The notes beneath the pieces are model-generated. The model was not told the origin of the DNA and did not search any database. It saw only the letters and a program-made list of their open reading frames with translations. This document shows, piece after piece, positions 13,810 to 63,307 of a stretch of 64,000 nucleotides of DNA. Within the stretch, counting starts at the first letter, position 1; the number at the start of each line of letters is the position of its first letter. Origin of the DNA: an uncultured virus (IMG/VR IMGVR_UViG_3300025009_000076). Taxonomy: Duplodnaviria; Heunggongvirae; Uroviricota; Caudoviricetes. Position numbers and translations under genes: made by a program. The stretch spans positions 1 through 64,000 of the IMG/VR virus record IMGVR_UViG_3300025009_000076; one strand, 5' to 3'.

Positions 13810-14504
13810 TGTATGTTATTGATGCTCCTTTTGGGATTGTTTTTGGAGTTTAATTGTTTTGTTATGTTTTTAATTATAAGATATTTTTTATATAAATCGC
13901 AATCGACCAATACGATTTAATAACTAATTTAGTAGGGAAGAGTAAGTAATAAATTTAAAACCTACTCTTTTACCCTCTATTTAGTTCGATATGCTGTGGT
14001 CTAACACAAGTCCTCACCTCTGTAAATCGGGTTTGGCAAATTTTCATGTGCTAACAGCATATTTGTCTCCTATTTTCATCCGACCAAAGACTACTCATAT
14101 TCGACGTTGATTTAGTTGAGATTTTGTATTATCTAAAACCCTTTAGTGCATATTTCAGCGTTACTTCGATAATACATGCCAAATTATCTTCAAGTCCTAT
14201 TGGCAAAACTCGATAGATAATTTTAAGCAAAGTTTTCTACTAACATAGCCAATTGTGTATGATTTAGTTAGTAAGGAAAGATTAATGGTCTTAAATTTTG
14301 TATGAACGTAAGGGTATAATTAATTTAAAATCATACCCTTCTTTAAAGGGTGTTTGCATATCTCTTATTTTTGTATATTAGTCTATGTTTCCCTTAGAGA
14401 CTATTATGGCAAAACGCTGAAAGTGTTGGTATGACTACGTTTGAGTAAATCAAGTAATATAGCTGTTTTTCAAACCCTTGTGGGAGTAGGGTTGTAGAGG
14501 TTTT

Positions 14505-31468: not shown

Positions 31469-31559
31469 TATTATAATTCTCATCTCCTTTCTAGGTAAAT
31501 AATTTACAGATTTGTACCTGTGAATATTGTAACACAGATTAATAAGTTTTGTCAAGGAA

Positions 31560-33850: not shown

Positions 33851-33866
33851 AAAAGGAGTGCTAACA

Positions 33867-47680: not shown

Positions 47681-47964
47681 AAATTAAAATGTAGGCATTA
47701 ACAAAAGCATATCCCTTAAGCAAAAAAAGAGAGAATTAACCTAAAACATTCTACTAAATCCCTTCAGTTTATTCATTATTACTATTTAATCATAACAATT
47801 GCTTTAAACTTGCATAACAAAATTAAAATGCAGGTTGTTGTAATTTAATGCTAAATTGTCTATGCTATAGGCTGAAGGGATTGAATTTTCCATAAGGTGT
47901 GAGCTTATAACAATTGGAGTTTAGACCTTGTGCAAAAATTTAAGAATGAAAGAGGTTGTGTAAA

Positions 47965-48153
47965 ATGGCAAAGGTAAGAGAATTAAAACTTTACACTTTA
48001 GAAACTACTAATTATCTCGCAGTGGTAGAAGCTCATACAAAAGCTGAAGCCATCGAAAAAAGTGATTTCACAAAAAGTCAAGTAATTGTCAGGGAGGCCA
48101 CGGAAGAAGATATAAACTATTTAAAAGCAATGGGAGGGTATATAGTTAGGTAA
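47965..48153 (+). CDS. Small hypothetical protein
   Basis: SD GAGG. Confidence 0.65.
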   Translation: MAKVRELKLYTLETTNYLAVVEAHTKAEAIEKSDFTKSQVIVREATEEDINYLKAMGGYIVR

Positions 48154-48297
48154 AATCATAATCCATTAAAAAAGACAATTTATGGGAAATGAAGTGCTTT
48201 ATAATACTGGATTATAGAGCACTTTGAATTTTATTAAACTATGTACTAAGCAAAAATAATTAGTTTGTATTTTAGTAAAATAAAAGGAGTGGTCAGA

Positions 48298-48552
48298 ATG
48301 ACAAAAGATACCATTCAGGCACTAAATGAAAACAAACGATTCACTATAACCATGATGAATAAAAATGGTTATACAGTCATGAGAAAATTTTCTACCATTC
48401 AATCCTGCAAGACCTTTGCAAAACATTTTCCTTTGTCTGTATTCTTCGCTTGGATTTATGACAAGTCAAAGGACGCTATAATAATGCAAAATAATTATAG
48501 CGACAAGTTATATAAATGTAACGAAGAATCATTTATTCCTTATTGGTGTTAG
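48298..48552 (+). CDS. Small hypothetical protein
   Basis: SD AAGGAG. Confidence 0.65.
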   Translation: MTKDTIQALNENKRFTITMMNKNGYTVMRKFSTIQSCKTFAKHFPLSVFFAWIYDKSKDAIIMQNNYSDKLYKCNEESFIPYWC

Positions 48553-48646
48553 CCCCTTAAAGTTTGTTTGCCTCTAGCAACAAAATCAAAATAACAGCAT
48601 AAAAATTTTGTTGCTAGTGTCGAGTAAATTAGAAGGAGTGGTTAAA

Positions 48647-49870
48647 ATGGCAAGAAGAAAACCAACCACAATGTCATGGAATATCAAGCAAATTAACACT
48701 ATGATCAATAAGGGAACAATCCTCTTTACTCATCCTTTACAACGTCCTACGGGCCAATGGGAGCAAGCAGACAAATCCTTATTAGTTGATTCTCTTTTAA
48801 CCCTCTATTGTCCAGATTGTTTCGCCATCAAGGAAAAGACAGAGAATGGAAATACATACAGCATCATTGATGGTCTTCAAAGGTTATCGACTATTCATGA
48901 ACTTCTAGCAGACAAATTAACTATGACAGAATTAGAAGACTTTTGCCTAGACGCTACCGGAAATGAAGTCTATAACATTTCAGGCAAAACATGGTCACAA
49001 TTTCCCGAAGAAGTTCAAAACGAAATAATGGGTTATACTTTAGGTCTTAAAGTTTTTGAAATCGAAGAGGGAGACGACGAAGAGTCAATCATTGAAGAAA
49101 TCTTTTACCGCCTTAATAACGGTAAAGGAATGTCACTAGAGCATAAAGCACTAGTAAAAGCTAGTCATAAGGTGCAAAAGTTTGTTCACAGAATTGCGAC
49201 AGAACACAAATTATTCACCAACAGTGCAAAGTATTCTGAAAAAGCGGTTAAAAAATCAGATATTCCAATGACCATTATGCAAGCAATTCTTCTTATCTCA
49301 AGGTTAGATTATCCTAGCCTAGCAGCAAAGGACATTGAACTGGTATTCTCAAAGAATGAAATAACAGATCAAGTCCTAGCACTTGTGGAAAAATCCTTTG
49401 ACTTAATTGCTACAGCATTTCCAGAACAGCATAAATTTGTTACAAAAATCAACATTGTTTCAATGGCCTATTTGTTTGCTAATAGTCTTAATCATGATCA
49501 AACAATTGTTAATCTTTTGAGATATGTTAATCAAGAGATTAAACCAGGGGACGCTTATAAAGGATATACTGGCTCTGGTAATGTTAAAAAAGAAAAAACC
49601 ATTAATAGACTTAAAGGTATTCTTAAATTATGCGGTGTTAATGACATTGGATTACCGATAGTGGAAGAAGTCGAAGTTGAGCAAAAATTAGAACAAGAAA
49701 TAATTGTTGAAGAACAACCGCAACAAACTGAAAACCTTGATTCTGCTATAACAGTGACCCCAGAAGAGTTCAGCGAAAATCAAGAAGAGCAACCGGAAGA
49801 AAATGAAACATCAGACCAAAACCAAGAAGATGCTCAAGCAATTCTAAACATCATTGACAATGTTGCTTAA
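48647..49870 (+). CDS. DUF262 (ParB/GmrSD N-terminal-like) domain protein with acidic tail
   Basis: LQR...W...KSLLVDSLL, IIDGLQRL, IFYRLNNG. Confidence 0.8.
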   Translation: MARRKPTTMSWNIKQINTMINKGTILFTHPLQRPTGQWEQADKSLLVDSLLTLYCPDCFAIKEKTENGNTYSIIDGLQRLSTIHELLADKLTMTELEDFCLDATGNEVYNISGKTWSQFPEEVQNEIMGYTLGLKVFEIEEGDDEESIIEEIFYRLNNGKGMSLEHKALVKASHKVQKFVHRIATEHKLFTNSAKYSEKAVKKSDIPMTIMQAILLISRLDYPSLAAKDIELVFSKNEITDQVLALVEKSFDLIATAFPEQHKFVTKINIVSMAYLFANSLNHDQTIVNLLRYVNQEIKPGDAYKGYTGSGNVKKEKTINRLKGILKLCGVNDIGLPIVEEVEVEQKLEQEIIVEEQPQQTENLDSAITVTPEEFSENQEEQPEENETSDQNQEDAQAILNIIDNVA

Positions 49871-49969
49871 TCATTAAATAATTGTATCTGGAAGCTAGAC
49901 AATAACAATGTTAACTTGCTATTGTCTAGCATTCGAGGTAAAGTTATTATATTCAAAGGAGGTCAAACA

Positions 49970-50278
49970 ATGCAATTCTTAACCCACTACGAGCGTTATA
50001 ACGTGTCAAAATGGGAGCAACGTCAAATCATGCCACAATCTAATTTTATAGCCTTAAACAATTCATTTATGAACCACAATTCTTCTCTAATCGGTTTCCA
50101 AATTGAACATGAAGAAAAACGAGTACATTATTCAGTTAGTAATATGTTTCTCGAAAGGTTGCAAGCTCAATTCCCTGATAACTGGCTTGATATTCTAAAT
50201 GACGGTATGGTTTATGAGTTCAAACAGTGGGAGCGTGGTATTTATTCTAATATGTATCAAGAGGGATTTTTTAGTTAG
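49970..50278 (+). CDS. Hypothetical protein
   Basis: SD AAGGAGG. Confidence 0.7.
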   Translation: MQFLTHYERYNVSKWEQRQIMPQSNFIALNNSFMNHNSSLIGFQIEHEEKRVHYSVSNMFLERLQAQFPDNWLDILNDGMVYEFKQWERGIYSNMYQEGFFS

Positions 50279-50451
50279 TAAAATACATTACCTAAACTAA
50301 AAAATAATTATTTAGAGAATTAGCCTTAATTCTCTTCTAAGTTCATGAAAAAAGTGATATAATATATATCATAAGGCTATGAAATTAGAAGGCAATTGTG
50401 GAAAATATCTATAACAGTTGGCCTAGAATAAATCAAAGGAGCGTGTATATT

Positions 50452-50847
50452 ATGCAAAAAGTAACTGAAGCAGAATTCCAAAACCTTTTAAACCAAAATA
50501 ACTATTCTTTAAAAGGTCTTGAAAATTATGAAATTGTTCCAGACTTCACACCTGTCGGAAACAAAATTATTGATTCATGTTTACATTCAAGGGTTAAAGA
50601 TTGTGGAAGTACATTATACTTTGGAGGCTATACTAATTCAGGTTGTTACTCATTCCAAATTATGGTCAATAAATCCTATAACACGACTGCACTATTCGTT
50701 GACGGATACAGGGCAGTATTGACTGACAATGATTCCCATAACATTTACACTTATTGCGAAGGTGATATTTCTGTTGAATCGTTCGGAAGTATCGAAGAAT
50801 ATCAAGTAGGAATTGCTGAAGCACTAGAATTTTATGAGGTTAATTAA
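50452..50847 (+). CDS. Hypothetical protein
   Basis: SD AAGGAG; YTYCEGD motif. Confidence 0.7.
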   Translation: MQKVTEAEFQNLLNQNNYSLKGLENYEIVPDFTPVGNKIIDSCLHSRVKDCGSTLYFGGYTNSGCYSFQIMVNKSYNTTALFVDGYRAVLTDNDSHNIYTYCEGDISVESFGSIEEYQVGIAEALEFYEVN

Positions 50848-50867
50848 TAAAGGAGAGTGGACGCTAA

Positions 50868-51116
50868 ATGATCACAATTATTAAATTAACCCATACCCTA
50901 GATGAAATCAAACCTAAATTTGATAACTGGAATGAACTTTCCAAAACTCAAAGAGATTTTCTTGAATCCTATAACGAATTCAGAATAACAAATTATGGTC
51001 AAGAAATGCTAGTATATGAAGGAAGACAAATTATTGCTAGTTGTTCAACATCAATAACTTATCATGATAAAATAGTTATTGACAGCATATGGACAAAAGA
51101 AGGTAAAATATTATAA
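50868..51116 (+). CDS. Hypothetical protein
   Basis: SD AAGGAG. Confidence 0.65.
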   Translation: MITIIKLTHTLDEIKPKFDNWNELSKTQRDFLESYNEFRITNYGQEMLVYEGRQIIASCSTSITYHDKIVIDSIWTKEGKIL

Positions 51117-51209
51117 CCATTCTTTATCTCGACAGTGGGCAGGTAACATTATAACAATAACAAATGTTATTTGCCTAGTTTCGAAATTAAGAAAAGGAAG
51201 TGTATTTTA

Positions 51210-51452
51210 ATGAAAAATTTTGTAATTAATAACGTGAATATGATTAAAGAAGATTTTTCGCAAATGATTAACTATGTAGGGTCAAGAGCTATAGCATTGT
51301 CCGAAGTAGAAGAAGGTATTGCAATTAATACTTCTAGCCCTTCAAACGAAAAAGATGTTCATAGTAGTATTGTGTTTTTCTTTGAAAAATGGAATAATGC
51401 TTATAAATTAGATTATGAAAGGAAAGACATATTGATTACTTGGAGGGAATAA
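51210..51452 (+). CDS. Hypothetical protein
   Basis: SD AAAGGA. Confidence 0.65.
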   Translation: MKNFVINNVNMIKEDFSQMINYVGSRAIALSEVEEGIAINTSSPSNEKDVHSSIVFFFEKWNNAYKLDYERKDILITWRE

Positions 51453-51500
51453 CCCGACCAAACACGAATTTTAAGCTAAATATGAAAGGAAGTTTTTGGA

Positions 51501-51695
51501 ATGTATGAAATTAATGTATCTTTAAACGGTTATCATTTATTTGCTACTCATGAAAGGTCTCTAACCAATGAAAATATGTTTAAACATGCGTTAGAAATTT
51601 TCAAAGAAAAATTTCCAGAATCAGAAGGTTATCAAATATCAGCTTCCTTATTGCAACCTAGAACTAGTAAAATATTAGATATTAATAAATTTTAA
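51501..51695 (+). CDS. Small phage protein
   Basis: YEINVSLNG.HLFAT.ERS...KFPESEGY. Confidence 0.7.
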   Translation: MYEINVSLNGYHLFATHERSLTNENMFKHALEIFKEKFPESEGYQISASLLQPRTSKILDINKF

Positions 51696-51803
51696 CATGA
51701 AATCTAATTTTGATTGTATGGAAATAGGGCGAAGTGATATAACAATAACAGGACTTCGCCTTGATTCGAGACTATTAAAATTAGAAGGAGAGTGTTTTAG
51801 ATT

Positions 51804-52241
51804 ATGAACGCAATGGCAGAAGCATTAAATAAGGCGCAAATAAAAGCAAATGATTTTGAGGATAAACAAGTCGATGAGAAAGCAATTGAAGCAGAAATGC
51901 AAATTGATTTTCTCGAAACATGGTTGAAATTACTTGAAAGAAATGCTTCTGAAAAGGAAAAGTATAACTTTGTGATAAAGCATGGTTTTGTATCAGTTTT
52001 ACAATTTAACCTGCATATGTCATGCATGGAAGATGTTCATAACCTGAAGGATATCTTAGATGATATTCGATATGATATTTCAGCCAGTGAAATTGCAGAA
52101 CGTGAAAAAGAAATAACAGAGAAAGAGGCAATGGCAAAGAATATCAAGAACTTGTTTTATTACAAAATGATTCTAAGGGGTTTAGGTAAAAAGGATATTA
52201 CTCCTTATGGAGAGGATATTTTGAAAAGAAAACTAACATAA
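51804..52241 (+). CDS. Hypothetical protein
   Basis: SD GAAGGAG. Confidence 0.7.
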   Translation: MNAMAEALNKAQIKANDFEDKQVDEKAIEAEMQIDFLETWLKLLERNASEKEKYNFVIKHGFVSVLQFNLHMSCMEDVHNLKDILDDIRYDISASEIAEREKEITEKEAMAKNIKNLFYYKMILRGLGKKDITPYGEDILKRKLT

Positions 52242-52398
52242 AACCAAACTTTTATATGACAGAGCGAGAAATAAAAATAATTTATCTCGCTCTGTGTGCT
52301 TTAATTATTCTCTAGACCGTGATATAATGTAAATATAAAATATTACGGTTTGGAGAGCATTTAAAACTCTCTTAAAATCTAAAAGGAGCGTGTTACAT

Positions 52399-54666
52399 AT
52401 GTATTATGGAGATCAAAGAGAATCAATGGTCAATCTGTCTTATGCATTAGAAGGCAAAGGTTGGGAAATTTTTGGTTATAGTGCGGATCAATCTGATTCC
52501 CAGTCTGATTATTATCATCCTGCATCATGGGACGGTATTGCTACTAAAAATGGCTTTGTTCTCTGTGTAGATATTAAAGATTATCAAGTTCAAAATTCAG
52601 GCAAAGGAGTCTATGAGTACACAAAAAATTATACAAATGTTTCAGATTATTCTAAAATTCAAAAACTCCAAGCACTAGCTAATGATTCGGCAGCGAGTCC
52701 AGAAGAAAAAGACACAGCACTAAAATTTATCGAGAAACTACATAATAATCAAGAAATCAAAGATCAAGACCGCGAAGCAACAAGAGTTTTAAAATATACT
52801 TATCCTATATTCCAAGCAAATCCTCCTTCTTGTAATTGGCATGTCGAAAAAGATGGTGTAATTTTAGCTAAAGGAAAAGGAGCTTTCCAATTTTCAGACC
52901 TCCCCTATGACTATGATTGTTCAACAGGTTTACAAAAAACATGGAGAAGTAGAGAATGGACACCGGATGAGAAAGAGCAAAAAGTTATTAACAAATTCTT
53001 ATCATTCGTTGCAAAAATAAATAATGTTGCATCGGGTGTGGCTAACATGGGCGATGGAACAGAAGAAACAGAACAGGAAGGATTAGAAGCCGAAAAGAAT
53101 TCTGGTTATGAAACCATCACTGTAACTGAATATAAAAGCGAAATTCAGGCTAATGAGATTGAAACACCAGAAACTTTAATTGTTGGAATGCATTTCAAAT
53201 TAAAGGCAAGCTTTACGCACTGTAATTCAGGAGATATTTATGTAATTACCACAATTCGTGAGAATCAATATAACAACAAGTGGTATATTACAGCATCGAG
53301 AATGAACCGCAAACTTAACAAAGTGTTAACTGGCAGAGCAACAGCAAGCAATAATTTTGACTGTGAACTTGAAAAGCTTAATACTTGGATAAGTAAAAAA
53401 TTTATTTCCATCGTCGAACTTGAGGAAGTAAAAACGCCTTATCAAGTACAAAAATGTGTAAAAATTACAAGGGATAAGACCACTAAACCAACCCAAAAGA
53501 AAACTAAAATTGAAGACGAAAAGACTGAAAATCCAATAACACCAGACCATGAAGAATACCAAGATGAAGTCTTGAGTGCCGATATAAGCGACACAACATC
53601 AATTAATGAAGAATCAGCAACCGAATTTATTCAGGCTTCCAAACGTCAATTATATGCCTTATATATTGGTACTAAGATCAAGACCACTGACCTAGTAATT
53701 AGCAAAGAAAAAGCAGGAGAATTGATATCTAAGAGTATCAAAGGAATCAATATCACTGAAGAACTTCAGGCATTTATAAATGGGGAGACCTTTATAACAG
53801 AAGTCTCAGAACCATTGCAGGAATTAGAAGAGATTAAACAAGAGGAGGAAATTAAAATAATGGAAAATGTTGATAATATACTCAGTAAATTTGATGAAAT
53901 AGAGGTGAAAAATAGTTCGCGTATCTCCTTAGATGATCAAACATTCTGCGAGGATCAAGAAAGAAACTACAATGAATTTATAAAATTCTCCAATGACTAC
54001 ATAAATTATCTAAATGAAAATTCCTTATCAAATACATTCTATAACAGCGAGTCTTTAGTCAATGAGATGAATAAAACCAGAGATATTAAAAAGGATATGT
54101 TTATTTCTAAAGTGGTAAATTATTTTAGAGATAAATACAAAGTAACGCTAAAAAGCGAACCGATTCAAAAGAAGTATGATATTTCTGTAAAGTATGATAT
54201 AATTATCGATGAAGTCATAGAACAACTGGGAGGTTATAACTTCATTGATAAAGCAGAAAAAGAGATTAAAGACGAATTCAAAAACACTTTAAGACATGAC
54301 AAAATTAAACTTAAAAATAAAAAACTATCAATTGAAAGTTTTTTTCAAACTGATTACTTTAGCATTAAGTATGGAACATATGAAGTTGGATATGGAAGCG
54401 ATGAAAAGTTTTATAAGTTGTTCAAGGCCATGTCTCACTTTTTATATGAGAGTAACGAGAATCTTTTTGATAATGTATATAGCACTATAACTAGACAAAA
54501 AGATGATGATGTATTTAAAACTCATGAGATAATTGGCAAGGATATTATCAAAACTTTGAAAGTATATAAAAATGGAAAAATTGATTTAGAATTTAGCAAC
54601 TCGGATCATATGCGAAAGTTTGCGAAGGATTACTGCGGATACACAGGTGATATTGCAGCCAAGTAA
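52399..54666 (+). CDS. Large multidomain (polyvalent-type) protein; C-terminal ~270 aa paralogous to the next gene
   Basis: SD AAGGAG; D.SDSQSDYY.PA.W motif; internal SD+ATG at 53860. Confidence 0.8.
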   Translation: MYYGDQRESMVNLSYALEGKGWEIFGYSADQSDSQSDYYHPASWDGIATKNGFVLCVDIKDYQVQNSGKGVYEYTKNYTNVSDYSKIQKLQALANDSAASPEEKDTALKFIEKLHNNQEIKDQDREATRVLKYTYPIFQANPPSCNWHVEKDGVILAKGKGAFQFSDLPYDYDCSTGLQKTWRSREWTPDEKEQKVINKFLSFVAKINNVASGVANMGDGTEETEQEGLEAEKNSGYETITVTEYKSEIQANEIETPETLIVGMHFKLKASFTHCNSGDIYVITTIRENQYNNKWYITASRMNRKLNKVLTGRATASNNFDCELEKLNTWISKKFISIVELEEVKTPYQVQKCVKITRDKTTKPTQKKTKIEDEKTENPITPDHEEYQDEVLSADISDTTSINEESATEFIQASKRQLYALYIGTKIKTTDLVISKEKAGELISKSIKGINITEELQAFINGETFITEVSEPLQELEEIKQEEEIKIMENVDNILSKFDEIEVKNSSRISLDDQTFCEDQERNYNEFIKFSNDYINYLNENSLSNTFYNSESLVNEMNKTRDIKKDMFISKVVNYFRDKYKVTLKSEPIQKKYDISVKYDIIIDEVIEQLGGYNFIDKAEKEIKDEFKNTLRHDKIKLKNKKLSIESFFQTDYFSIKYGTYEVGYGSDEKFYKLFKAMSHFLYESNENLFDNVYSTITRQKDDDVFKTHEIIGKDIIKTLKVYKNGKIDLEFSNSDHMRKFAKDYCGYTGDIAAK

Positions 54667-54696
54667 CCAAAAAATTAAAAATTGGAGTGATTTATT

Positions 54697-55524
54697 ATGT
54701 TAAATTTATTGAGTAAATTCGATGAAATCAAAATTGAGAATGTAAACAGAATTGATGAGGAAGATAAAAAATTCTGTGAGATGTTCAACAAAATTTATGA
54801 TGAAACATTAGTATGCTATAGGAACACCTTAGAAAGTTTAATATCCTTATATAATGAACAAATCCTGTTAGTAAAAAACAGTTATGATTTATGTATTTCA
54901 AAATATGGCGGTGGAAGGAACGATCTTAGTATTGACGGTGTTAAAAATGGCATTTTTCACGTAAAGGAAAATTTTATCAGTAAGATTTGTTATTATTTTA
55001 GCAGAAAATATAATGTTACTATTGATCACAGTAAAATTTATGAAAGATACAAAGATATTGAACTCCCCTACGGTAAACAAGAGAACAGAGATAAGACACT
55101 TAATATAAATTTGCTTGAATATGTACATATTGATTATAACATTATTTTGGATGAGATATTCGCTCAATTAAATGGTTTTAGTTTTCTTGAAAAGGCAATT
55201 GATGAAATTAAGCAAAAAGCAAAAATACCCTTACGTTGGTACGAACATCGTAAGTATTGGAATTATGAGGTTAAAGGTAAAACGATCAAATTTAGAACAA
55301 GTATAGATGATATTAAGTCAGCACTATATTTTTATGATAATAATGAAACACAGCTAATTGACTGCTACACTCATAACAAAGTTGATGATTATACAAGTTA
55401 TGATAATGGTAATACGAATATTAAGTTTATTAATTCTTCTTATGCTCTTGATTTTGCAAAAAGATATTTAGGATATATTGAAATGACTGAGGAGCAAAGA
55501 GAAGCATTTAAGAAAAGTTGTTAA
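54697..55524 (+). CDS. Hypothetical protein paralogous to the C-terminus of the upstream gene
   Basis: LSKFDEI....RI...D..FCE, FISK...YF..KY.VT, Y.II.DE...QL.G..F..KA..EIK shared. Confidence 0.8.
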   Translation: MLNLLSKFDEIKIENVNRIDEEDKKFCEMFNKIYDETLVCYRNTLESLISLYNEQILLVKNSYDLCISKYGGGRNDLSIDGVKNGIFHVKENFISKICYYFSRKYNVTIDHSKIYERYKDIELPYGKQENRDKTLNINLLEYVHIDYNIILDEIFAQLNGFSFLEKAIDEIKQKAKIPLRWYEHRKYWNYEVKGKTIKFRTSIDDIKSALYFYDNNETQLIDCYTHNKVDDYTSYDNGNTNIKFINSSYALDFAKRYLGYIEMTEEQREAFKKSC

Positions 55525-55546
55525 TTGAATTAAGGAGTTGAAGAGA

Positions 55547-58500
55547 ATGAAATACGCTATAACAAATGTTGTAATACCTCAAGAAAGACGCAAGGAAATA
55601 AATTCTAAATGTTTATATGTTGTTGAAAATAATTTAGATGTATTAACTCAACAAGATGTATTTTCTTGCTATTCTGGCGAGGGTGGACTTCATGGTTTAG
55701 AATTTAAAGAGTTTGATAACTATCATTCGTTCTCTGAAGCGAAAAAAGAAATAGAACTTGGAGCCTTCTTTACTCCTGCTACAATATCGAAATTTATGGC
55801 TGATTGTATAAAACCAAGTAATCAAGATTTAATTTGTGACATGACTTGTGGCGCAGGTTCATTCTTTAATTATCTTCCAGTCGAACACAATGTCTATGGT
55901 AATGAAATTGATATTAAATCTTATAAAGTTTCTAAATATCTTTATCCAAAAGCAAATATTTCTAATGATGATATTAGAAATTATGCACCAGACGTTAGAT
56001 TCGATCTAATTCTTGGAAATCCTCCATATAACTTAAAATTAAGAGTAGGTAAAGAAGAATACCTTTCACAACTTTATTATTGTATGAAAGCTTCAGAACT
56101 TCTTAAACCTGCCGGATTCATGGTATTAATTGTTCCTAATTCATTTCTAGCAGATACCTTCACAGATTCGGGAATGATTAAAACTATTAACAAATCATTT
56201 AATTTCATATGTCAATTCGATCTTCCTACAAATGCCTTTAAATCAGTAGGGGTTGAAAACTTTGCAACAAAAATAATGTTCTTTCAAAAACAATCAGAAC
56301 ATTTATTGACTATGCCTTATACCACTGATAAAATTCCTAACATTTTCATTACAGATGCATATGCTGAGATCATACATAATCAATATCTACTTCCATACAT
56401 AACTAAAAAGGAATCCTTAAAAGGCAAATTATTCTTTGAAAATGTACATAATAGTGATACTCAAGAGAATGCAGAATTTCAGTATAAAGTAAAAAAGATG
56501 TTATTTGCAATTAAACAACATCCTGCAATTAATTCATATTATGGAAAATGCTTATCTTATTTAGATAAATTTAATACTCAGAAAATGCCAGAGGGTATGA
56601 AGTATGAGGAATGGTCTAAGGTTAAAATCACTGAGAAAAAAGTATTATCTTATCTTAAAAGAACATTGGCAAAACAATCTAAAAATGAACGTGATGAGAT
56701 CCGATTAGTTAAAACATCTTATTCAATCAAGTTAAAGGGATATTCCCAAAAGAACAAAGTGTTTCTGTCTAAATATGCAGGAGAAAAGAATATCTCTATT
56801 AATGATATGATTATTTCTGGGAAATATCCTTTTGAAGATAAAACATATCAAAAATTAATTGATAAAAAAGTCAATGATTATAACTTTAATAGTTCTAATT
56901 TGCGTGAACTTCTTGCTAATTTAAACATATCTAATTTCCTTAATGAGTTTTCTCTTACAGATACATCCACAGGGGAAATATTACGCCTTAACGACATTCA
57001 AAAAAGTGACATGAATAATATCATTCAAAGACGTTATAGTGTCCTTAATTACAGTATGGGTGCTGGTAAAACTCCATGTGGTATTGCATGGTATAAATAT
57101 CTATTGTCCCAAAATAAAGTCAGAAATGTATTTATTGTATCGGCAGCACTAGGAATAAATTTAACATGGGATGTAAAACTGAATGATTACAAAGAGGATT
57201 ATATTAAAATTAAATCATTAAAAGACATTAATTCTATTAAACCTAAACAAATTGTAATATTATCATTCAATATGTTAATTAAATATCAAAGACAAATTAA
57301 AAAGTTTATTAAAATGCAATCTCAAAAAGTGGCTTTGATTGTAGATGAATCAGACGAATTGACTAATGATAAGTCACAAAGAACAAAAGTTACTTTAGAT
57401 TGTTTTAGAAAGGTAAATTATAAACTCTTAACTACTGGAACTACTACACGTAATAATATTAATGAATTATACAGTCAACTTGAATTACTTTATAATAATT
57501 CTGTTAATATGTTGTGTGAAGCTGATTATATTTATAAATTCAATAAGGAGAAAGAACTTAAGGAAGAATACAATGAACATTATATGAACCCCTTTCCTGC
57601 TTATCATGGGAAAAAGTTGTTTGTTGCTAGTTTTTCACCATCTAAAATAAGTGTATTTGGTATTAAAAAAGATTGTCAGGACATTTATAACATTGAATAT
57701 CTTCAGAAAATTATTGAAAAAACAATTATTACACGTAAATTTCAGGAGGTAGTTGGGCGTAAAATTTATGAGATTATTACTCATAGGATTAAACAAAATT
57801 CAGCAGAAAGAGAAGTTTATAAAGTAATTATGGAACAGTTTTATGAAATGCTTTATTTGTTTAGAAGTACTGGGAACAGTCGTAAAGACGCTATGTTACG
57901 TCTAATTAGGCAAATTCAATTATTAATTAAATCAACTTCAACACCAGAACAATTTAAGGAATATGCTAGTACCGAAACGCCTAATAAATACTTAAAAATC
58001 TTTAGCTTATTAGACAAGTGGAAAAATGAAAAAGTAGCAATTGGTACAGTATTCCTAGATACTGCAAATAGTTATTATTCTAAACTTCGTCAAAGGTATC
58101 CAGAACGAGAGATATTTATGATTCAAGGCAATGTATCCTTTACTAAAAGAAAGAGCATTATAAGCCAATTTGAGGCAACTAGTAATGGAATTTTAGTTAG
58201 CACTCAACAAAGTTTAAAATCCAGTGTCAATATTCCAACTTGCGATAAGGTTATTATTGAGTCCATGCAATGGAATATACCAAAGATTAGTCAGTATTAT
58301 TTTAGGTTTATTAGATTCAATTCAACGCAAAATAAGGAAGTACACTTCGTAACCTACGATCACACGATTGAGCAAAATTTAATGGCCTTATTAATGGCGA
58401 AAGAAAGAATTAATGAGTATATCAAAACATTAGATTTTCAAGACCAAGAGGAAATTTATGAGGAATTTGACGTAGATTTGGGCATACTCGACGCACTAAT

Positions 58501-58564
58501 AGAAAAGGGAGAAGATGAGAATGGACATGTAAAGTTGACATGGGGAGAACAAAAGATAGTATAA
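55547..58564 (+). CDS. N6-adenine DNA methyltransferase-SNF2/SF2 helicase fusion (DarB-like)
   Basis: FFTP, DMTCGAGSF (motif I), GNPPY (motif IV), MGAGKT, VDESD, TGT. Confidence 0.85.
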   Translation: MKYAITNVVIPQERRKEINSKCLYVVENNLDVLTQQDVFSCYSGEGGLHGLEFKEFDNYHSFSEAKKEIELGAFFTPATISKFMADCIKPSNQDLICDMTCGAGSFFNYLPVEHNVYGNEIDIKSYKVSKYLYPKANISNDDIRNYAPDVRFDLILGNPPYNLKLRVGKEEYLSQLYYCMKASELLKPAGFMVLIVPNSFLADTFTDSGMIKTINKSFNFICQFDLPTNAFKSVGVENFATKIMFFQKQSEHLLTMPYTTDKIPNIFITDAYAEIIHNQYLLPYITKKESLKGKLFFENVHNSDTQENAEFQYKVKKMLFAIKQHPAINSYYGKCLSYLDKFNTQKMPEGMKYEEWSKVKITEKKVLSYLKRTLAKQSKNERDEIRLVKTSYSIKLKGYSQKNKVFLSKYAGEKNISINDMIISGKYPFEDKTYQKLIDKKVNDYNFNSSNLRELLANLNISNFLNEFSLTDTSTGEILRLNDIQKSDMNNIIQRRYSVLNYSMGAGKTPCGIAWYKYLLSQNKVRNVFIVSAALGINLTWDVKLNDYKEDYIKIKSLKDINSIKPKQIVILSFNMLIKYQRQIKKFIKMQSQKVALIVDESDELTNDKSQRTKVTLDCFRKVNYKLLTTGTTTRNNINELYSQLELLYNNSVNMLCEADYIYKFNKEKELKEEYNEHYMNPFPAYHGKKLFVASFSPSKISVFGIKKDCQDIYNIEYLQKIIEKTIITRKFQEVVGRKIYEIITHRIKQNSAEREVYKVIMEQFYEMLYLFRSTGNSRKDAMLRLIRQIQLLIKSTSTPEQFKEYASTETPNKYLKIFSLLDKWKNEKVAIGTVFLDTANSYYSKLRQRYPEREIFMIQGNVSFTKRKSIISQFEATSNGILVSTQQSLKSSVNIPTCDKVIIESMQWNIPKISQYYFRFIRFNSTQNKEVHFVTYDHTIEQNLMALLMAKERINEYIKTLDFQDQEEIYEEFDVDLGILDALIEKGEDENGHVKLTWGEQKIV

Positions 58565-58709
58565 GGCATAGAGGAAATGAACTAAAATGGTTTGTTTCCT
58601 CTCTTTGTTCCCTATTATAAAGTAAAAAATAATTATTTATCTATTGCAATTTGTTTAGTTTTCATATAAAATAAGCAATAAGAAGCAAACTAGAAGGAGC
58701 GTGTAACTT

Positions 58710-59066
58710 ATGTCTAAATTAGCAGTACATAATGATGGTGTTTGCTCAGTGGTTGACCCATTCATAACAACTAATGAAAGATGTTTAACTTTTAAGTATG
58801 CAGGAAATGACAAAGTAGAGAAAGCAAAAAATCTTTCAAACTTATTAGATCAAAACAAAATAGATTATGTTTGCTATCTTGAAACAGGGAATTATTACCC
58901 TTGTCAATTTATCCTTAGAAGAAGTGGCAGAAAGTGGAATGATATAATGAAGTTGGTTAACAGTGTTCAATCTCCAAAATACGATTATGCTAAGATTGAC
59001 TTCTATATAACTGACGAAGTAAAGAAAAATGTTTTAGGTAAAATTCAAGTAATTCAATATTGTTAG
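58710..59066 (+). CDS. Hypothetical protein
   Basis: Promoter ~58644, SD GAAGGAG. Confidence 0.7.
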   Translation: MSKLAVHNDGVCSVVDPFITTNERCLTFKYAGNDKVEKAKNLSNLLDQNKIDYVCYLETGNYYPCQFILRRSGRKWNDIMKLVNSVQSPKYDYAKIDFYITDEVKKNVLGKIQVIQYC

Positions 59067-59142
59067 TCCAATAAACCTTACATTTCCAATACTAAAATGG
59101 TATAATATGTATAACAAAATCAACTAGAAAGAGGGAATTAAA

Positions 59143-59301
59143 ATGGAAATTACTTTTGAACAACTGAAGAAAACTATGCTAAATGGATTAGAAGGAGAAT
59201 TTAAAAGATCAATTGAAGGGATTATTGATTGCAGTGAGAAAATCGGAAAAACAGTTCCAGAAACAATGGATAAAATTACTAAGATATTATTAGGACAATA
59301 G
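59143..59301 (+). CDS. 52 aa protein (not in track)
   Basis: SD GAAAGAGGG. Confidence 0.6.
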   Translation: MEITFEQLKKTMLNGLEGEFKRSIEGIIDCSEKIGKTVPETMDKITKILLGQ

Positions 59302-59386
59302 GTTGATTGAAGGTTACACACCAATAATTCTATAACAAATTGGCGTGTGACATTGAACCAAAATATTGTAGAAAGAAGGAATTATA

Positions 59387-59740
59387 ATGAATTTATCAGA
59401 AATTACTCAAGATGCTTTTCAGATAATCAAAGATTTTAAACATGGTCATGGTCGTTATTCTTTGATTGTATCAAGTGAGTCAAAATATGGAGATTTTTCA
59501 ATTGAATATCGAATGTTAAATAATGAAATTAATCAAATTTTGGTATCTGAGAGAATAGCACCTAATCATAGTTCTAAATTCGTGGTTACTCCAAATAATT
59601 TCCGTACTATCACAGAACAAGGATTCGAAGCAGACAAATTCTTTGATAAAATCATAAAGGAAATGAATTTTGATGCTGTAGAGGTTCGTTGTTTTCCAGC
59701 CGATATGGAAGAAATATATTGTCAAGAATTTAATATCTAG
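59387..59740 (+). CDS. Hypothetical protein
   Basis: SD GAAGG. Confidence 0.7.
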   Translation: MNLSEITQDAFQIIKDFKHGHGRYSLIVSSESKYGDFSIEYRMLNNEINQILVSERIAPNHSSKFVVTPNNFRTITEQGFEADKFFDKIIKEMNFDAVEVRCFPADMEEIYCQEFNI

Positions 59741-59825
59741 GTTGAAATCTGAGGTATTAGTATAACAATAACGATATGATCCCTCGACTTGAGTCTATAA
59801 ATTAATTAGAAAGAGGGAATATATT

Positions 59826-60089
59826 ATGGGTATGATTAAAGAAAATGCAATGGAATTAAAGGCTAAAATCGAGAACCGTCACACCTTCGAACCAATTAAT
59901 TTAAAATGTAATGGCGGTACGTTCTATGGAAGAGGTTGCCTTAATTATGTAGATTCTGGTGATAATGTAAATGGAATTTGGTGGTTTTCTAATGGTAGTG
60001 TAGGTGGTAGTTTTGAGGCCAGTGAAGAATTTGTGCTAACCACTATCGGAATTAATTACCAAGAAATTAAGGAGTATTTTGAAGGATAA
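59826..60089 (+). CDS. Hypothetical protein
   Basis: SD GAGGG. Confidence 0.7.
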   Translation: MGMIKENAMELKAKIENRHTFEPINLKCNGGTFYGRGCLNYVDSGDNVNGIWWFSNGSVGGSFEASEEFVLTTIGINYQEIKEYFEG

Positions 60090-60115
60090 ATCAATTAAGA
60101 AAGAAGGAATTATTT

Positions 60116-60301
60116 ATGTCTGAAATTTCAATTTGGCAATTAAACAGAACTGATAATCAAGGCAATATCATTTCAGGTTATCAAGACATTTCCAAAAACG
60201 TAACACGCGAACAGGCAATAACAGATTATCTTTACTACTTGGAGACCTCAGAAGGGATTGAAAATCCTAAGTGTGAGTGCATTGAAATTGATTGGGAATA
60301 A
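60116..60301 (+). CDS. Small hypothetical protein
   Basis: SD GAAGG. Confidence 0.65.
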   Translation: MSEISIWQLNRTDNQGNIISGYQDISKNVTREQAITDYLYYLETSEGIENPKCECIEIDWE

Positions 60302-60414
60302 ATTAATTGCATATGGAGAATAGGCAATAACAATAGTACCATAACAGAACCGTTATAACAGGTTGTTGCCTTCCTTTCGAGGTAAAGTTGACTAAATATG
60401 AAGGAGTGGAAATT

Positions 60415-60576
60415 ATGGAGAAAATTGACTCTATTAATATTCATTGTAGATGGTTTGATAGCAATACAGAAAGGGAGCGTATTCAAAGATTAATACTCAA
60501 AGGTAAAGTAGAAGGGGAAATAATCCAACATAACGAAACTGGAGAAGATTATTGGGGATGGTGGAAAAGATCCTAG
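60415..60576 (+). CDS. Small hypothetical protein
   Basis: SD GAAGGAG. Confidence 0.6.
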   Translation: MEKIDSINIHCRWFDSNTERERIQRLILKGKVEGEIIQHNETGEDYWGWWKRS

Positions 60577-60610
60577 TAAACAATAATTTTAAATGAAAAG
60601 GAGAAAAATT

Positions 60611-60802
60611 ATGAAAAACTATTTAGTAGAATTAATACTTGAACCGAGACTACCACAAGGAAAATATATTGGGCGTAGGTATATAACTATTAAATTACCT
60701 GCTGATAATGAAATTGACGCAGGTAATTTTGCAAAAGAATCAATAGAAGTGTTATTGATTTCTAATGTATTGGTTATAGTAAATAAAGTATTGGAAAGTT
60801 AA
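60611..60802 (+). CDS. Small hypothetical protein
   Basis: SD AAGGAG. Confidence 0.6.
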   Translation: MKNYLVELILEPRLPQGKYIGRRYITIKLPADNEIDAGNFAKESIEVLLISNVLVIVNKVLES

Positions 60803-60933
60803 TGTCTAGGGGCATTTAAAGCCCTTCTGAGCGTCAATAATGCTATAACAGTCATATATATCCATAACAGCAGAGTAAGGGACGTTCAGAAGAGTTCTGA
60901 AGACTCTAAAAATAAATTGTTGGAGGTTATTTT

Positions 60934-61272
60934 ATGAAAATATTGCAATTTGATTATCTTCAGGCAGAATATGATGGAGAAGTGCTAAAAGATTTTCTTA
61001 TCGAACAGTTACCACGCTTTATAAATTGTGAACAAATGCAAACATACATAAAATCATCCGATGGATTTTGGCAAGATGTTAGAAATGAAATAACAAAGCA
61101 AAAAAGAGTTAAAAGGTTCAGTGAATTAGAAGATTATAAATGGATATTAGATTACCTTAATTTTTTAGCTGACAGAGATTTAGCAAAGGCAATAAACAAA
61201 GGATTGAACACAAGAAATAAAAAGTATGCGGATCTTGAAAAATTCTTTATTAAATATTCAAAGGCAGCATGA
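60934..61272 (+). CDS. Hypothetical protein
   Basis: SD GGAGG. Confidence 0.7.
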   Translation: MKILQFDYLQAEYDGEVLKDFLIEQLPRFINCEQMQTYIKSSDGFWQDVRNEITKQKRVKRFSELEDYKWILDYLNFLADRDLAKAINKGLNTRNKKYADLEKFFIKYSKAA

Positions 61273-61312
61273 ATGTACCATTTGCTCAGGTTAACAAAAG
61301 GAGGAATAACAA

Positions 61313-61519
61313 TTGATTATTAATATTGATCCTTATCAAAATACCTTTTATTCTCGTAAAATCAATAATAATCTATACAGACATGAGGGCAGACAGAATA
61401 CAATTGAATTTGTGATTGATAGTAAAACTCCAAAGACTCAAGAAGAAATTCTCGATTTTTTAGAATCAAAGTCAATAGATTATCTATTAAATAGAGAAGG
61501 AACTATCATAGATATTTAA
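61313..61519 (+). CDS. Small hypothetical protein
   Basis: SD AAGGAGG, TTG start. Confidence 0.65.
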   Translation: MIINIDPYQNTFYSRKINNNLYRHEGRQNTIEFVIDSKTPKTQEEILDFLESKSIDYLLNREGTIIDI

Positions 61520-61641
61520 AGAGTTTATGCTCTTTATCTTAAATCTATCATAACAGAAGCCCTATATAGGTTGATGGATTTAAGATAAAGGATATAAATC
61601 TAATCATTATATCCTAAAATAAAATCAAAGGAGGTAACAAA

Positions 61642-61749
61642 ATGAGCAAATTAAAATTACTCCAAGAATTCAAAAACATTTGCGATACTCATTCTATTCC
61701 ATTCACTTTTAAGTCATTTGACATGTTTCTTACTCATATTTCTAAATAA
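61642..61749 (+). CDS. 35 aa peptide (not in track)
   Basis: SD AAGGAGGT. Confidence 0.55.
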   Translation: MSKLKLLQEFKNICDTHSIPFTFKSFDMFLTHISK

Positions 61750-61809
61750 TCTTACATATTCTATATCAACTATAAACCAAAAATAAAATTATTGAAAGAA
61801 GGTAATCAA

Positions 61810-62100
61810 ATGCAAAAACCTAAAAATATCAAAAACTTAACCCATTCTGCTTCAAAACTTAATATCTTATACTTAGGCAAAGAAATTGTTTACACAGGCA
61901 CAGGACACTCCTTAAGACCTTATCGTGGAGAAATCATTAACATTGCTTATTACTCAGACCTTGAACCTGTTCCATATGCAGAAATCAAGTTAAAGATATG
62001 GAACAGCCGGACAGTAACTAAAATTCTTCCATTATCTGATGTTGTTTTGGTATCTTCTTTGAAGAAAACTAAAACTAAGAAATCTAAGATAGCAGCATAA
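61810..62100 (+). CDS. Basic hypothetical protein
   Basis: SD GAAGGT. Confidence 0.65.
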   Translation: MQKPKNIKNLTHSASKLNILYLGKEIVYTGTGHSLRPYRGEIINIAYYSDLEPVPYAEIKLKIWNSRTVTKILPLSDVVLVSSLKKTKTKKSKIAA

Positions 62101-62256
62101 TTCAATATCTTTTCTATGGACACTGTAAAGCGTAAAATAATTATAACAATTGATTCCCATACGTTGTACAGTGTAATTCTTAAAAGGTATTAGTTAAACT
62201 CAATGCTAATATCTCAACTATTGTATAACAAAATCAAAAGGAGGACAGGAGATATC

Positions 62257-62586
62257 ATGTCAAAATTATCTAATGTAGAAATCATTGCAATTGAAGCATC
62301 TAAAAAAGAATATATTTATAATGGTGAGAATATTTTTACTTTTGCTCAGTGGGAAAAGAGAGGATTCGGAGTTAAGAATGGGCAAAAAGCATTTATCAAG
62401 ACTAGATTAATGAGTCAGGGAGAAAATCCAAGATCGATCCCAGTATCGCTTTATACCATCGAACAGGTAAAATATAACGAAGACTTATGGAATGGCAGAC
62501 CTCGCAAACCACGACAAATAAAAGATGAAATTGGTTATTATCTTGTAAACAAGCAACGTACTCAGAGGGAAGTTATTATGGTATAA
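62257..62586 (+). CDS. ArdC N-terminal-like ssDNA-binding protein
   Basis: FTFAQWEKRGFGVKNGQKA...LY..EQV motif. Confidence 0.6.
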   Translation: MSKLSNVEIIAIEASKKEYIYNGENIFTFAQWEKRGFGVKNGQKAFIKTRLMSQGENPRSIPVSLYTIEQVKYNEDLWNGRPRKPRQIKDEIGYYLVNKQRTQREVIMV

Positions 62587-62666
62587 TCTTGTAAATGTCA
62601 TAACAGCCATAACACGGACGTTCGAGAGGTTCAGAAGATATTTTTAAATTATTAGGAGGAATTATT

Positions 62667-62918
62667 ATGCAAAGTGGTTTACAGTCTAAAAATGAGTATA
62701 TTCTATATCGTTCTATGTATAACAATGAACTTCACAATGCTATAATGGATAAGGATGTTCAAGCGATTGAAATATTATTAGATGGATTAACAAAAGCACA
62801 TTTGAAGAATTATGATTTTAGCCTATATGATTCAAATACTTTTATTGATATTGATTATGTTTACAATGAGCATGTAAAACAAATTGAAGAATTGGAGGCA
62901 TATTGTCGTGGTTTATAA
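62667..62918 (+). CDS. Hypothetical protein
   Basis: SD AGGAGG. Confidence 0.65.
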   Translation: MQSGLQSKNEYILYRSMYNNELHNAIMDKDVQAIEILLDGLTKAHLKNYDFSLYDSNTFIDIDYVYNEHVKQIEELEAYCRGL

Positions 62919-63040
62919 ATTCAAGCAAGCAATTGTAAATGGTGATCAATATATTTATGGATTTGGATTTTATTTGAGTATTGTGAAGTGGTATAAGTAA
63001 TCCCATTAATTCATTAATAACAAGAAAGGTTGTGTAGTTG

Positions 63041-63199
63041 ATGGAATTAGGTGATAAAGTTAAAATCAGAAATGGTATGCTTAGAGGAGTAATTGTCGAG
63101 ATACAAAAATCCATGAAAGGTAGAAAGATATTTGTAGTTCAAATTACTAAAAATGTTAGTAATGGATATTGGGAAGAGGAATTAGAGAAAATTATTTGA
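63041..63199 (+). CDS. 52 aa SH3/KOW-like protein (not in track)
   Basis: MELGDKVKI...GVIVEI...W.EEELE; SD GAAAGG. Confidence 0.55.
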   Translation: MELGDKVKIRNGMLRGVIVEIQKSMKGRKIFVVQITKNVSNGYWEEELEKII

Positions 63200-63307
63200 C
63201 CCAACGAAACTATTAATTTATACCATATTATGGATTTAGAAACCCTTATAACAGTAGTGTTTCAGGGTTTGACGAATTTAAAAATTAGAAGAAAGAAGGA
63301 AATTATT

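Follow-up and report, generated by a model that had tools for sequence, protein, structure and literature searches.

The gene spacers between 47.6 and 63.7 kb of the window, by which we mean the whole 64,000-nt stretch of DNA analyzed here from an uncultured virus (IMG/VR record IMGVR_UViG_3300025009_000076, Caudoviricetes), carry hairpins with unrelated stems and a shared word, ATAACA. We hold with moderate confidence that these elements are inter-cistronic punctuation or leader signals in the sense messenger RNA (mRNA), with a YAUAACAR tag that would be read by one putative trans-acting protein. The window forms the first 64 kb of a virus contig of 78,297 nt (G+C 25-34%), and it has minus-strand genes as far as about 31 kb and plus-strand genes beyond about 33.8 kb. 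An initial annotation, made from the letters of the window, had proposed an array of 15 such hairpins in front of early genes, and the 15 intervals indeed hold the sequences it described. Its proposal of a gene-by-gene signal in the sense RNA was supported by an asymmetry of G.U pairs, compensatory changes in related phages, the sense orientation of the motif in both gene clusters and zero matches in Rfam.

Folding was assessed by comparing the minimum free energy (MFE) of each element with that of 200 shuffled versions, the difference being given below as z. Twelve of the 15 listed hairpins folded better than their own shuffles. A z of -4.8 or lower, with 0/200 shuffles as stable, was found for 9/15, and four elements (59302, 60302, 60803 and 63225) had moderate values of -2.4 to -2.9. 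For the controls, 17 spacers beyond 64.4 kb and 40 coding windows, the median z was -0.5 and +0.4, respectively. The annotated hairpins therefore stood in 12 cases; those at 50390, which had already been marked as weak, 59751 and 62587 did not. Weak G.U-rich lower helices extend most folds to 50-126 nt, beyond the cores that were first noted. The 15 elements are the following.

47757..47882, + strand: imperfect hairpin of 126 nt with motifs at 47792 and 47814 in the apical part; -38.5 kcal/mol, z -5.8, 0/200 shuffles as stable.
47891..47932, + strand: hairpin whose loop begins at the ATAACA at 47907, helix end 27 nt before the start codon at 47965; z -4.8, 0/200.
48556..48635, + strand: extended hairpin beginning 3 nt past a stop codon, core 48574-48617 of 13 bp, 18-nt loop with the motif at 48591, TCGAG at 48620; z -4.8.
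49877..49948, + strand: extended hairpin, core 49894-49930, motif at 49902 at the stem/loop edge; 3' flank TTCGAGGTAAAGTT in common with the element at 60322; z -6.9.
50390..50424, + strand: weak hairpin 3' of a TGnTATAAT promoter-like site, motif at 50411; z -1.9, 13/200 shuffles as stable.
51117..51197, + strand: extended hairpin beginning immediately past a stop codon, core 51139-51176 of 13 bp, tandem loop ATAACAATAACA (51151, 51157), TCGAA at 51181; z -6.3.
51703..51785, + strand: extended hairpin, core 51728-51760, tandem motif at 51739 and 51745, TCGAG at 51766, 3' base abutting a Shine-Dalgarno sequence; z -7.5.
59303..59361, + strand: hairpin, core 59313-59351, motif at 59332; z -2.9.
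59751..59795, + strand: motif ATAACAATAACG (59762) in an essentially unstructured spacer, not a convincing hairpin; z +0.3, 117/200 shuffles as stable.
60307..60385, + strand: hairpin, core 60322-60371, motifs at 60327, 60341 and 60355, 14 nt apart, TCGAG at 60377; z -2.4.
60804..60904, + strand: composite of a small GC hairpin, a long hairpin (core 60826-60890, motifs at 60845 and 60864) and a GAGTTCTGAAGACTC tail; z -2.4.
61520..61601, + strand: long hairpin, core 61531-61589, motif at 61550 with a small inner hairpin behind it; z -5.7.
62105..62190, + strand: long hairpin, core 62120-62173, motif at 62143; z -5.0.
62587..62638, + strand: weakly structured spacer with motifs at 62600 and 62609 and TCGAG at 62622; the copy number varies by strain, with one copy in the related contig L020; z -0.3.
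63231..63280, + strand: hairpin, core 63240-63270, motif at 63248; z -2.4.

The helix starts 0-10 nt 3' of the upstream stop codon in 11/15 elements and ends 11-40 nt 5' of a start codon in 13/15. Loops measure 9-45 nt, and the stems are unrelated in sequence between elements, as had been described. A MAFFT alignment of the copies registered on ATAACA while the arms fell out of register, and a four-row alignment of one hairpin gave zero consensus structure. Past the window end, a further hairpin with an ATAACA loop (GGATGGT ... ACCATCC) is present directly 3' of a stop codon at genome positions 66312-66360 (6312-6360 of contig L015), and contig L003 holds a two-copy version of it at 19522-19536.

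The motif itself was counted against expectation. Counted on both strands of the entire window, ATAACA shows no enrichment, with 85 copies found versus 90.4 expected; from 47 kb onward, 48 copies are on the plus strand and 4 on the minus strand. In the 28 sense spacers between 47.6 and 63.7 kb (2621 nt) it occurs 25 times versus 1.83 expected (z 17.6, 0/1000 dinucleotide shuffles), which confirms the enrichment that the initial annotation had left to be checked. It is the top hexamer of these spacers, with the Shine-Dalgarno word AAGGAG behind it (12 vs 1.26). The wider consensus is YATAACAR, with ATAACAA found 14 times and ATAACAG 10 times. ATAACA is outside the top eight spacer hexamers at 1-32 kb, 33-47 kb and 63.3-78 kb, in agreement with the remark that the element was not seen at 34-46 kb. 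It is likewise outside the top eight spacer words of Clostridium phage D-1873 and of four distant relatives with helicase identities of 55% (L006) or about 50% (L007, L011 and L014). A single look-alike element was noticed in L006 at 14619-14660.

Close relatives share the elements. In six metagenome relatives with 78-94% identity (L020-L025) the gene strand has 83 copies of ATAACA, the opposite strand 13. Their orthologous hairpins keep both pairing and loop word, and the loop word is the most conserved part of the orthologous spacer alignments, although strict conservation is limited to UAACAR. From the word to the start codon downstream the distance is 21-114 nt. The word had been placed in or at the edge of the loop, and in the MFE folds 13/22 motif copies had at least five of six bases unpaired, the others lying at the edge of a stem or within small inner helices. 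The three copies at 60327-60360, being 14 nt apart, put the stop codon TAA (within ATAACA) in all three frames, which may be chance in AT-rich sequence.

A second word fared less well. TCGA(G/A/C) had been noted behind several hairpins; TCGAR does follow 6/15, and TCGAG is enriched in the spacers (5 vs 0.57 expected, 0/1000 shuffles). Orthologues change TCGAG to TCAAG and TCGGG. TCGAG was rejected as a second conserved box, being present at only 6/15 elements and not kept in orthologues, and is most likely the 3' strand of the weak lower helix.

The motif also occurs in leaders that do not form a hairpin around it, and in leaders of the minus-strand gene cluster. These copies had been missed by the initial annotation, as had the non-conservation of TCGAG in orthologues, the scaffold behavior of the spacers and the neighboring ribozyme, which are described below. 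The additional copies are as follows.

59111..59116, + strand: linear unstructured motif, 4 nt past a TGnTATAAT -10 box; the start codon at 59143 is 32 nt further on.
62225..62230, + strand: linear motif, 32 nt before the start codon at 62257, kept in L020, L023 and L025.
63017..63022, + strand: linear motif, 21 nt before the start codon at 63038.
12002..12017, - strand: two sense motif copies in the leader of the open reading frame (ORF) 11678-11962, after a small hairpin.
13860..13865, - strand: sense motif copy 7 nt past a TATAAT box, in the leader of ORF 13534-13809.

Three of the linear copies, at 59111, 62225 and 13865, stand shortly after -10 boxes, and the first of these lies downstream of a promoter-like site at 59077-59106 that the promoter scan listed. 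In the minus-strand cluster the copies (12002-12017 and 13860-13865) share the orientation of their genes and are found in leaders. The copy at 63017 is located just past the point (63001) at which homology with the near-identical contigs L003 and L004 ends, and this copy therefore travels with the downstream gene. Together these positions suggest that the word would have to be single-stranded but need not sit in a loop, and that it probably also acts in linear leaders.

Several comparisons indicate that the sense strand is the one that matters. The plus-strand fold is the more stable one in 13/15 elements, with summed energies of -316 kcal/mol for the plus and -238 kcal/mol for the minus strand. 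The initial annotation had stated that stem mismatches are mostly G.U pairs on the plus strand and that selection acts on the sense RNA. A strand-symmetric alignment of the arms agreed with this; it yielded 312 Watson-Crick pairs, 41 G.U pairs on the plus strand, 16 A.C pairs and 29 transversions, and the G.U:A.C ratio of 41:16 exceeded that of a composition control (929:750; binomial p = 0.0076). Comparison of the hairpin at 61531-61589 with its L024 orthologue showed that of 23 pairs 14 were the same, four were kept by double changes, three were kept with one-sided changes and two were broken. In the orthologues of 59313-59351 one pair was kept by a double change and two by A-U to G.U changes. 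Those of 63240-63270 kept one pair by a double change, and TTATAACAGT was invariant in four copies. The orthologues of 60322-60371 in L023, L024 and L020 kept 14 pairs with zero double changes, and for 62120-62173 one G.U pair had turned into A-U in L025. Single-nucleotide polymorphisms seen in the hairpin at 61520-61605 (61524 T>C, 61542 A>G and 61549 C>T) come from four DNA runs aligned at 80% likeness and are weak evidence. The strand bias, the G.U excess and the compensating changes suggest that selection acts on the folded sense strand.

This pattern bears on the possibility that the elements act in DNA, as an N4-type hairpin promoter, a single-strand promoter of the plasmid Frpo type, a replication or nicking site or a double-strand operator resembling the SPbeta element SPBRE. 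The motif resembles a -10 box (TATAAC). The phage encodes a single-chain RNA polymerase of the YonO type, and the YonO promoter is described as unknown even in SPbeta (PMC5467207). In SPbeta, moreover, the repressor MrpR binds an element that is repeated between genes (PMC10516654). Against a DNA signal, the motif is on the non-template strand and folding favors the same strand. A scan of 46.5-64 kb for promoters and terminators found 111 promoter-like sites versus 99 expected, that is no excess, and a manual check of seven elements found no constant -35/-10 geometry around the hairpins; the stems lack conserved hexamers. YonO is described as transcribing the SPbeta late genes from one promoter (PMC5467207), and an operator needs no flanking variable inverted repeat. 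We therefore consider a DNA signal very improbable. An N4-type hairpin promoter, a short conserved hairpin on the template strand that goes with an N4-type virion RNA polymerase, was rejected specifically, since both the motif and the stabler fold are on the non-template strand and the polymerase is of the YonO type. SPBRE, a 15-bp double-strand operator at promoters that binds MrpR (PMC10516654), resembles the ATAACA modules in being a repeated intergenic element of early regions in a phage with a YonO-type polymerase (PMC10516654). It differs from their strand-specific word of 6-8 nt and covarying stems, a distinction that is drawn from its description and not from its letters.

The initial annotation had noted that none of the hairpins has a U-tract, and the terminator scan reported 0/15 elements; none qualified as an intrinsic terminator with a GC-rich stem and a T-run. 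Only two plus-strand terminator sites were found in the scan, at 48190-48226 and 58570-58602, and another terminator at about 52250 was read directly in the sequence. Between 34194 and 45645 nearly every gene has its own hairpin and T-run terminator followed by a TTGACA/TATAAT (sigma-A) promoter. As the elements are absent from the terminator scan and ordinary T-run terminators occur elsewhere, the ATAACA hairpins form a separate intra-operon class.

These data also lend no support to the earlier suggestion that the elements reload an antitermination complex, in which case the loop would act as a nut-like site and bind an antitermination or elongation factor at each gene. Some copies do lie just after promoters (59111, 62225 and 13865), and UAACAA may resemble the 3' part of the Escherichia coli rrn boxA. 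There are at least 15 copies per 16 kb, the loops of 9-45 nt are unlike boxB pentaloops, and the tagged genes have no intervening terminators that would need suppression; ordinary T-run terminators are found elsewhere. Searches with Pfam and PHROGs did not find an N- or Q-like protein. The lambda-type nut site, with boxA, a boxB loop of 5-6 nt, one site per operon and an N-like protein, was thus rejected as a model, and we regard nut-like action as very unlikely.

A loop word read by a protein has well-known counterparts. Lambda boxB, recognized by N, and the GGA hairpins recognized by CsrA both have a conserved loop word that a protein reads. The elements resemble them in combining a variable stem with a conserved loop word in one to several copies per leader; they differ in the word, in their far longer and variable loops and in occurring in many more copies per genome than nut sites. 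Phage T4 offers a second likeness, as RegB cuts GGAG, a reaction blocked by structure, and RegA represses about 30 mRNAs at A+U-rich unstructured sites, with the RB69 RegA selecting UAA repeats (PMC3014915). By analogy, a short single-stranded inter-cistronic word might again be used by one phage factor on many early messages. The words of RegB and RegA lie inside the ribosome-binding site, whereas ATAACA is 21-114 nt upstream and mostly on a hairpin. A RegA or RegB homologue was not detected among the phage proteins by Pfam and PHROGs. The initial annotation had proposed a protein-binding loop among its explanations, and this gives the simplest account of a conserved single-stranded motif, although no reader protein emerged from Pfam and PHROGs.

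Position and shape of the hairpins also recall sites of host ribonucleases. In T7 early mRNA and in Bacillus phages SP82 and SPO1, inter-cistronic hairpins are cut by RNase III and leave protected ends. The ATAACA elements are likewise imperfect hairpins between presumed early genes of a polycistronic transcript, and they could be plain processing or stabilizer hairpins of the host RNase III or RNase Y in which the motif is a relic of common descent without a separate reader. They form long imperfect helices with internal loops and sit right after stop codons, leaving a short leader before the next gene. When the T7-type criterion of about two helical turns, or an imperfect duplex of at least 20 bp, was applied, 9/15 MFE folds had at least 20 pairs (44, 27, 29, 29, 29, 26, 23, 32 and 28). 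The other 6/15 had fewer than 20 and would be too short for RNase III, and three sites have no hairpin at all, yet the motif is kept. The T7, SP82 and SPO1 sites are not known to need a conserved apical loop, whereas the ATAACA motif is best conserved while the stems change and is also found in linear leaders. Both arms have been replaced around a loop that persists, which common descent by itself would not bring about. Plain ribonuclease sites are quite unlikely.

A circumstantial link to processing comes from the ribozymes that occupy equivalent spacers. Just past the window end, the array continues with a spacer that contains a pistol ribozyme (RF02679) at genome positions 64373-64446 (L015 4373-4446), with 60.1 bits versus a gathering score of 34.5. 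Only 2 nt separate the ribozyme from the stop codon in front of it and 24 nt from the start codon behind it, and orthologues were found in L003, L020, L021 and L022. The P3 loop of the L003 pistol carries CATAACAA, where the window phage has GATAATAA. Directly 3' of the predicted pistol cleavage site, L021 and L022 have a tandem AUAACAAUAACA, and L020 has a single copy. More distant relatives also carry ribozymes in their arrays: L007 and L009, both relatives at 50%, each have two pistols and one twister, and L012 has a type II hammerhead at 1892-1959 whose 37.5 bits are just above the cut-off of 37. Like the pistol, twister and hammerhead ribozymes, the ATAACA modules stand directly after a stop codon and a few tens of nucleotides before a start codon, in the same arrays, and in this sense they are positional equivalents of ribozymes.

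The elements themselves are unlike ribozymes in that they match no Rfam ribozyme model. Rfam 15 gave zero matches at the gathering score over window positions 1-64000, in line with the annotation, which had not recognized a described motif. At E <= 5 there were six weak, unrelated matches in 47-64 kb and no ribozyme, so membership of the pistol family (at least 34.5 bits) was rejected; the sole match on an element was mir-3910 at 61522-61600, with 26 bits versus a cut-off of 95. The only match to a RAGATH model was RAGATH-18 in D-1873 (L002 21173-21233, 64.9 bits), directly 3' of an OrfB-family transposase gene, and it was set aside as unrelated. By context the ATAACA hairpins do fit a RAGATH-type category, as a motif recurring in arrays that hold ribozymes, and not as a sequence family. 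The category goes back to Weinberg et al. (2015), who reportedly found new ribozyme classes in such ribozyme-rich gene arrays. A literature search for AUAACA hairpins in phages found no description of the motif in the sources covered, which excluded subscription journals. Both hairpins that separate early phage genes and protein-read loop words are of a known kind; the word, its link with ribozyme-bearing arrays and the scaffold behavior of the spacers are new.

The elements stand in ribozyme-rich arrays in place of a ribozyme, which raises the idea of a self-cleaving RNA of a new type, in which an AUAACA-loop hairpin with a GGAR/UUCGAG lower helix would be its own substrate. Conservation is confined to about 8 nt, however, a pseudoknot or junction common to the copies is absent, TCGAG follows only 6/15 elements and is altered in orthologues, and the motif also occurs without a hairpin. 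Self-cleavage is therefore extremely unlikely. A wider version, in which the hairpin and the weakly conserved GGAR/UUCGAG lower helix would be a minimal catalytic or ribozyme-assisting RNA that has replaced pistol-type ribozymes at the gene boundaries of this phage lineage, is highly improbable as well; a milder proposal makes the hairpin the target of a dedicated phage endoribonuclease. The ATAACA hairpins have no conserved catalytic core, so that a protein would be required for any cutting. Ribozyme processing of polycistronic phage transcripts is itself described as proposed and not established (PMC6765202). The processing or stabilizing site suggested in the initial annotation thus gained circumstantial support by analogy, from ribozymes at the next and at equivalent spacers, and a function in processing, stability or leaders is favored mainly because the ATAACA modules match ribozymes in position.

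Comparison with the relatives further showed that spacers can be kept where genes are not. In nine cases at loci with room on both sides, a spacer was conserved at 77-96% while both neighbor genes were unrelated. Five of these concern ATAACA spacers (59313 in L021 and L023, 60322 in L023, and 63240 in L020 and L022) and four the pistol spacer (L003, L020, L021 and L022). In the spacer-only cases the homology ends only a few bases away from the flanking stop and start codons. At four loci the 61531 spacer is accompanied by the downstream gene alone, and at one locus the 60322 spacer by the upstream gene alone. L023 keeps the spacer order 59313, 60322, 61531 with other genes in between, and in L025 the flanks of the 60826 element enclose a different inner stem. 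Junctions between gene borders, such as 59384>60302 and 49961>51700, are seen in contigs of other runs, with 80% likeness and short sides that make this a weak indication. The spacers thus appear to be a conserved scaffold of a mosaic gene array.

Such behavior would be expected of DNA recombination linkers like the PeSLs of T4-type phages, stem-loop cassettes that flank recombining orphan genes (PMC2839356). The spacers would then be homologous landing pads for gene exchange, with hairpin and motif as by-products or minor regulatory parts. The nine spacer-only cases, the kept order in L023 and, weakly, the contigs that join gene borders all favor this explanation. As with PeSLs, repeated stem-loop modules in a hyperplastic region lie between small orphan genes that are exchanged between close relatives (PMC2839356), and gene gain, loss and replacement are seen. 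The definition of a PeSL requires a sigma-70 consensus promoter and a terminator stem-loop, with about 100 bp conserved (PMC2839356). The ATAACA modules have neither promoter nor T-run, and what they conserve is the single-stranded loop word and not the stem; PeSL membership was rejected by the promoter criterion, there being no promoter excess or promoter geometry at the hairpins. In addition, what any two spacers of the genome have in common is 6-8 nt and the Shine-Dalgarno sequence, which is not enough for homologous exchange between them, and the strand bias, G.U excess and compensating changes speak for selection on the folded sense strand. A linker function is therefore unlikely, and the linker behavior is probably a consequence of the modular layout. 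Integron attC sites are another class of recombining hairpins, with core sites RYYYAAC/GTTRRRY paired at the hairpin base. They were rejected, since here it is the apical loop that has the conserved word, conservation is lacking at the base of the stems, and no integrase was seen in the contig.

The explanation that we favor, a protein-read tag in the sense mRNA, can be outlined as follows. Each element would mark a gene boundary in a long mosaic array of small orphan genes, whose early timing we infer. A stable hairpin would display one to three single-stranded copies of YAUAACAR, with UAACAR as the core. A putative trans-acting factor, either an RNA-binding protein or an endoribonuclease of phage or host origin, would bind or cut the RNA at this tag on all tagged messages, which would form one regulon with a common control of processing, lifetime or translation. 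The hairpin would present the tag and protect the RNA ends made by cutting of the polycistronic transcript. Through recognition by a protein, the modules would thereby take on the task of the pistol, twister and hammerhead ribozymes that occupy the same position in this phage and its sisters.

A number of observations weigh against this explanation. Three of the 15 sites are not significantly structured (50390-50425 with z -1.9, 59751-59785 with z +0.3 and 62586-62631 with z -0.3), and the MFE fold pairs 9/22 motif copies in part. Orthologues vary in the first A of the motif, with CUAACAA in L023 and GUAACAG in L024. The G.U excess is modest, as a ratio of 1.24 would follow from the G- and A-rich plus strand alone. 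A role in recombination at the DNA level would account equally well for conserved spacers between exchanged genes, and the analogy with ribozymes is positional only. Finally, Pfam and PHROGs detected no RNA-binding or nuclease family among the array proteins; the only near-match in the array was a sub-threshold ArdC-N (E 0.0028) in ORF 62203-62586.

The role of self-cleaving ribozymes in phage gene arrays is presented as an open question in PMC6765202. In this lineage ribozymes and non-catalytic, loop-tagged hairpins alternate at the same kind of gene boundary. The tag on the pistol P3 loop or after the predicted cleavage site offers a testable link from ribozyme punctuation to protein-read tags. 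If the milder proposal of a dedicated phage endoribonuclease were true, the elements would be a protein-based counterpart of ribozyme punctuation. The spacers appear to be a stable scaffold between which orphan, probably anti-defense, genes swap, and the same elements may explain both the expression of newly acquired genes and the modularity of the array.

Predicted proteins were compared with Pfam and PHROGs, and nearly all array proteins are orphans without a family. Other products of the window include a PIN-PhoH protein, helicases, a DarB-like methylase-helicase (55538-58564) and a GmrSD-N protein. The closest named relative is Clostridium phage D-1873, with 62% identity over a polymerase piece and 45% over the helicase, and the SPbeta group is next among named relatives at about 54%. 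The IMG/VR contigs L003-L005 are near-identical to the window (99.95-99.99%) up to position 63001, L005 stopping at 62241; L003 and L004 diverge from the window beyond 63001. The sequence is present in 14 DNA runs from seven studies of groundwater, soil and sediment metagenomes, all of them DNA. Megablast of 47-64 kb versus phage records gave zero matches, and a scan of viral contigs with a 131-aa array protein retrieved only the same phage. A scan of genome contigs found a single distant locus, in Paenibacillus (50% identity), that gave no host clue.

The YonO-type polymerase is encoded on the minus strand in two pieces, 16482-18137 and 14505-15467, of 551 and 320 aa, which correspond to positions 24-550 and 551-846 of PHROG 8308. 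Between them lies an ORF of 222 aa that resembles a NUMOD3 endonuclease (15632-16300). The split may reflect an intron, an intein or a split gene, and Rfam gave zero intron matches at this gene. Downstream of the polymerase gene, 13900-14500 on the minus strand is a stretch of about 600-700 nt without an ORF, which recalls the non-coding region of about 1.7 kb between yonN and yonK of SPbeta. A YonO-dependent start site has been mapped in that SPbeta stretch, and comparison with the region of about 1.7 kb upstream of yonK found no obvious likeness.

Some other non-coding features were noticed. The divergent minus- and plus-strand gene clusters of the window are separated by 2.3 kb without ORFs of at least 100 aa (31556-33857). 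Beyond the window, a 394-nt spacer at genome positions 65777-66170 (L015 5777-6170), 3' of an HNH endonuclease gene (64877-65776), has a fold of -101 kcal/mol and zero Rfam matches at the gathering score. A HEARO RNA (109 bits) is present in the array of L009, and SAM-I riboswitch aptamers (58.7 bits) occur in the arrays of helicase-related phages at 14041-14128 of L011 and 14138-14225 of L012.

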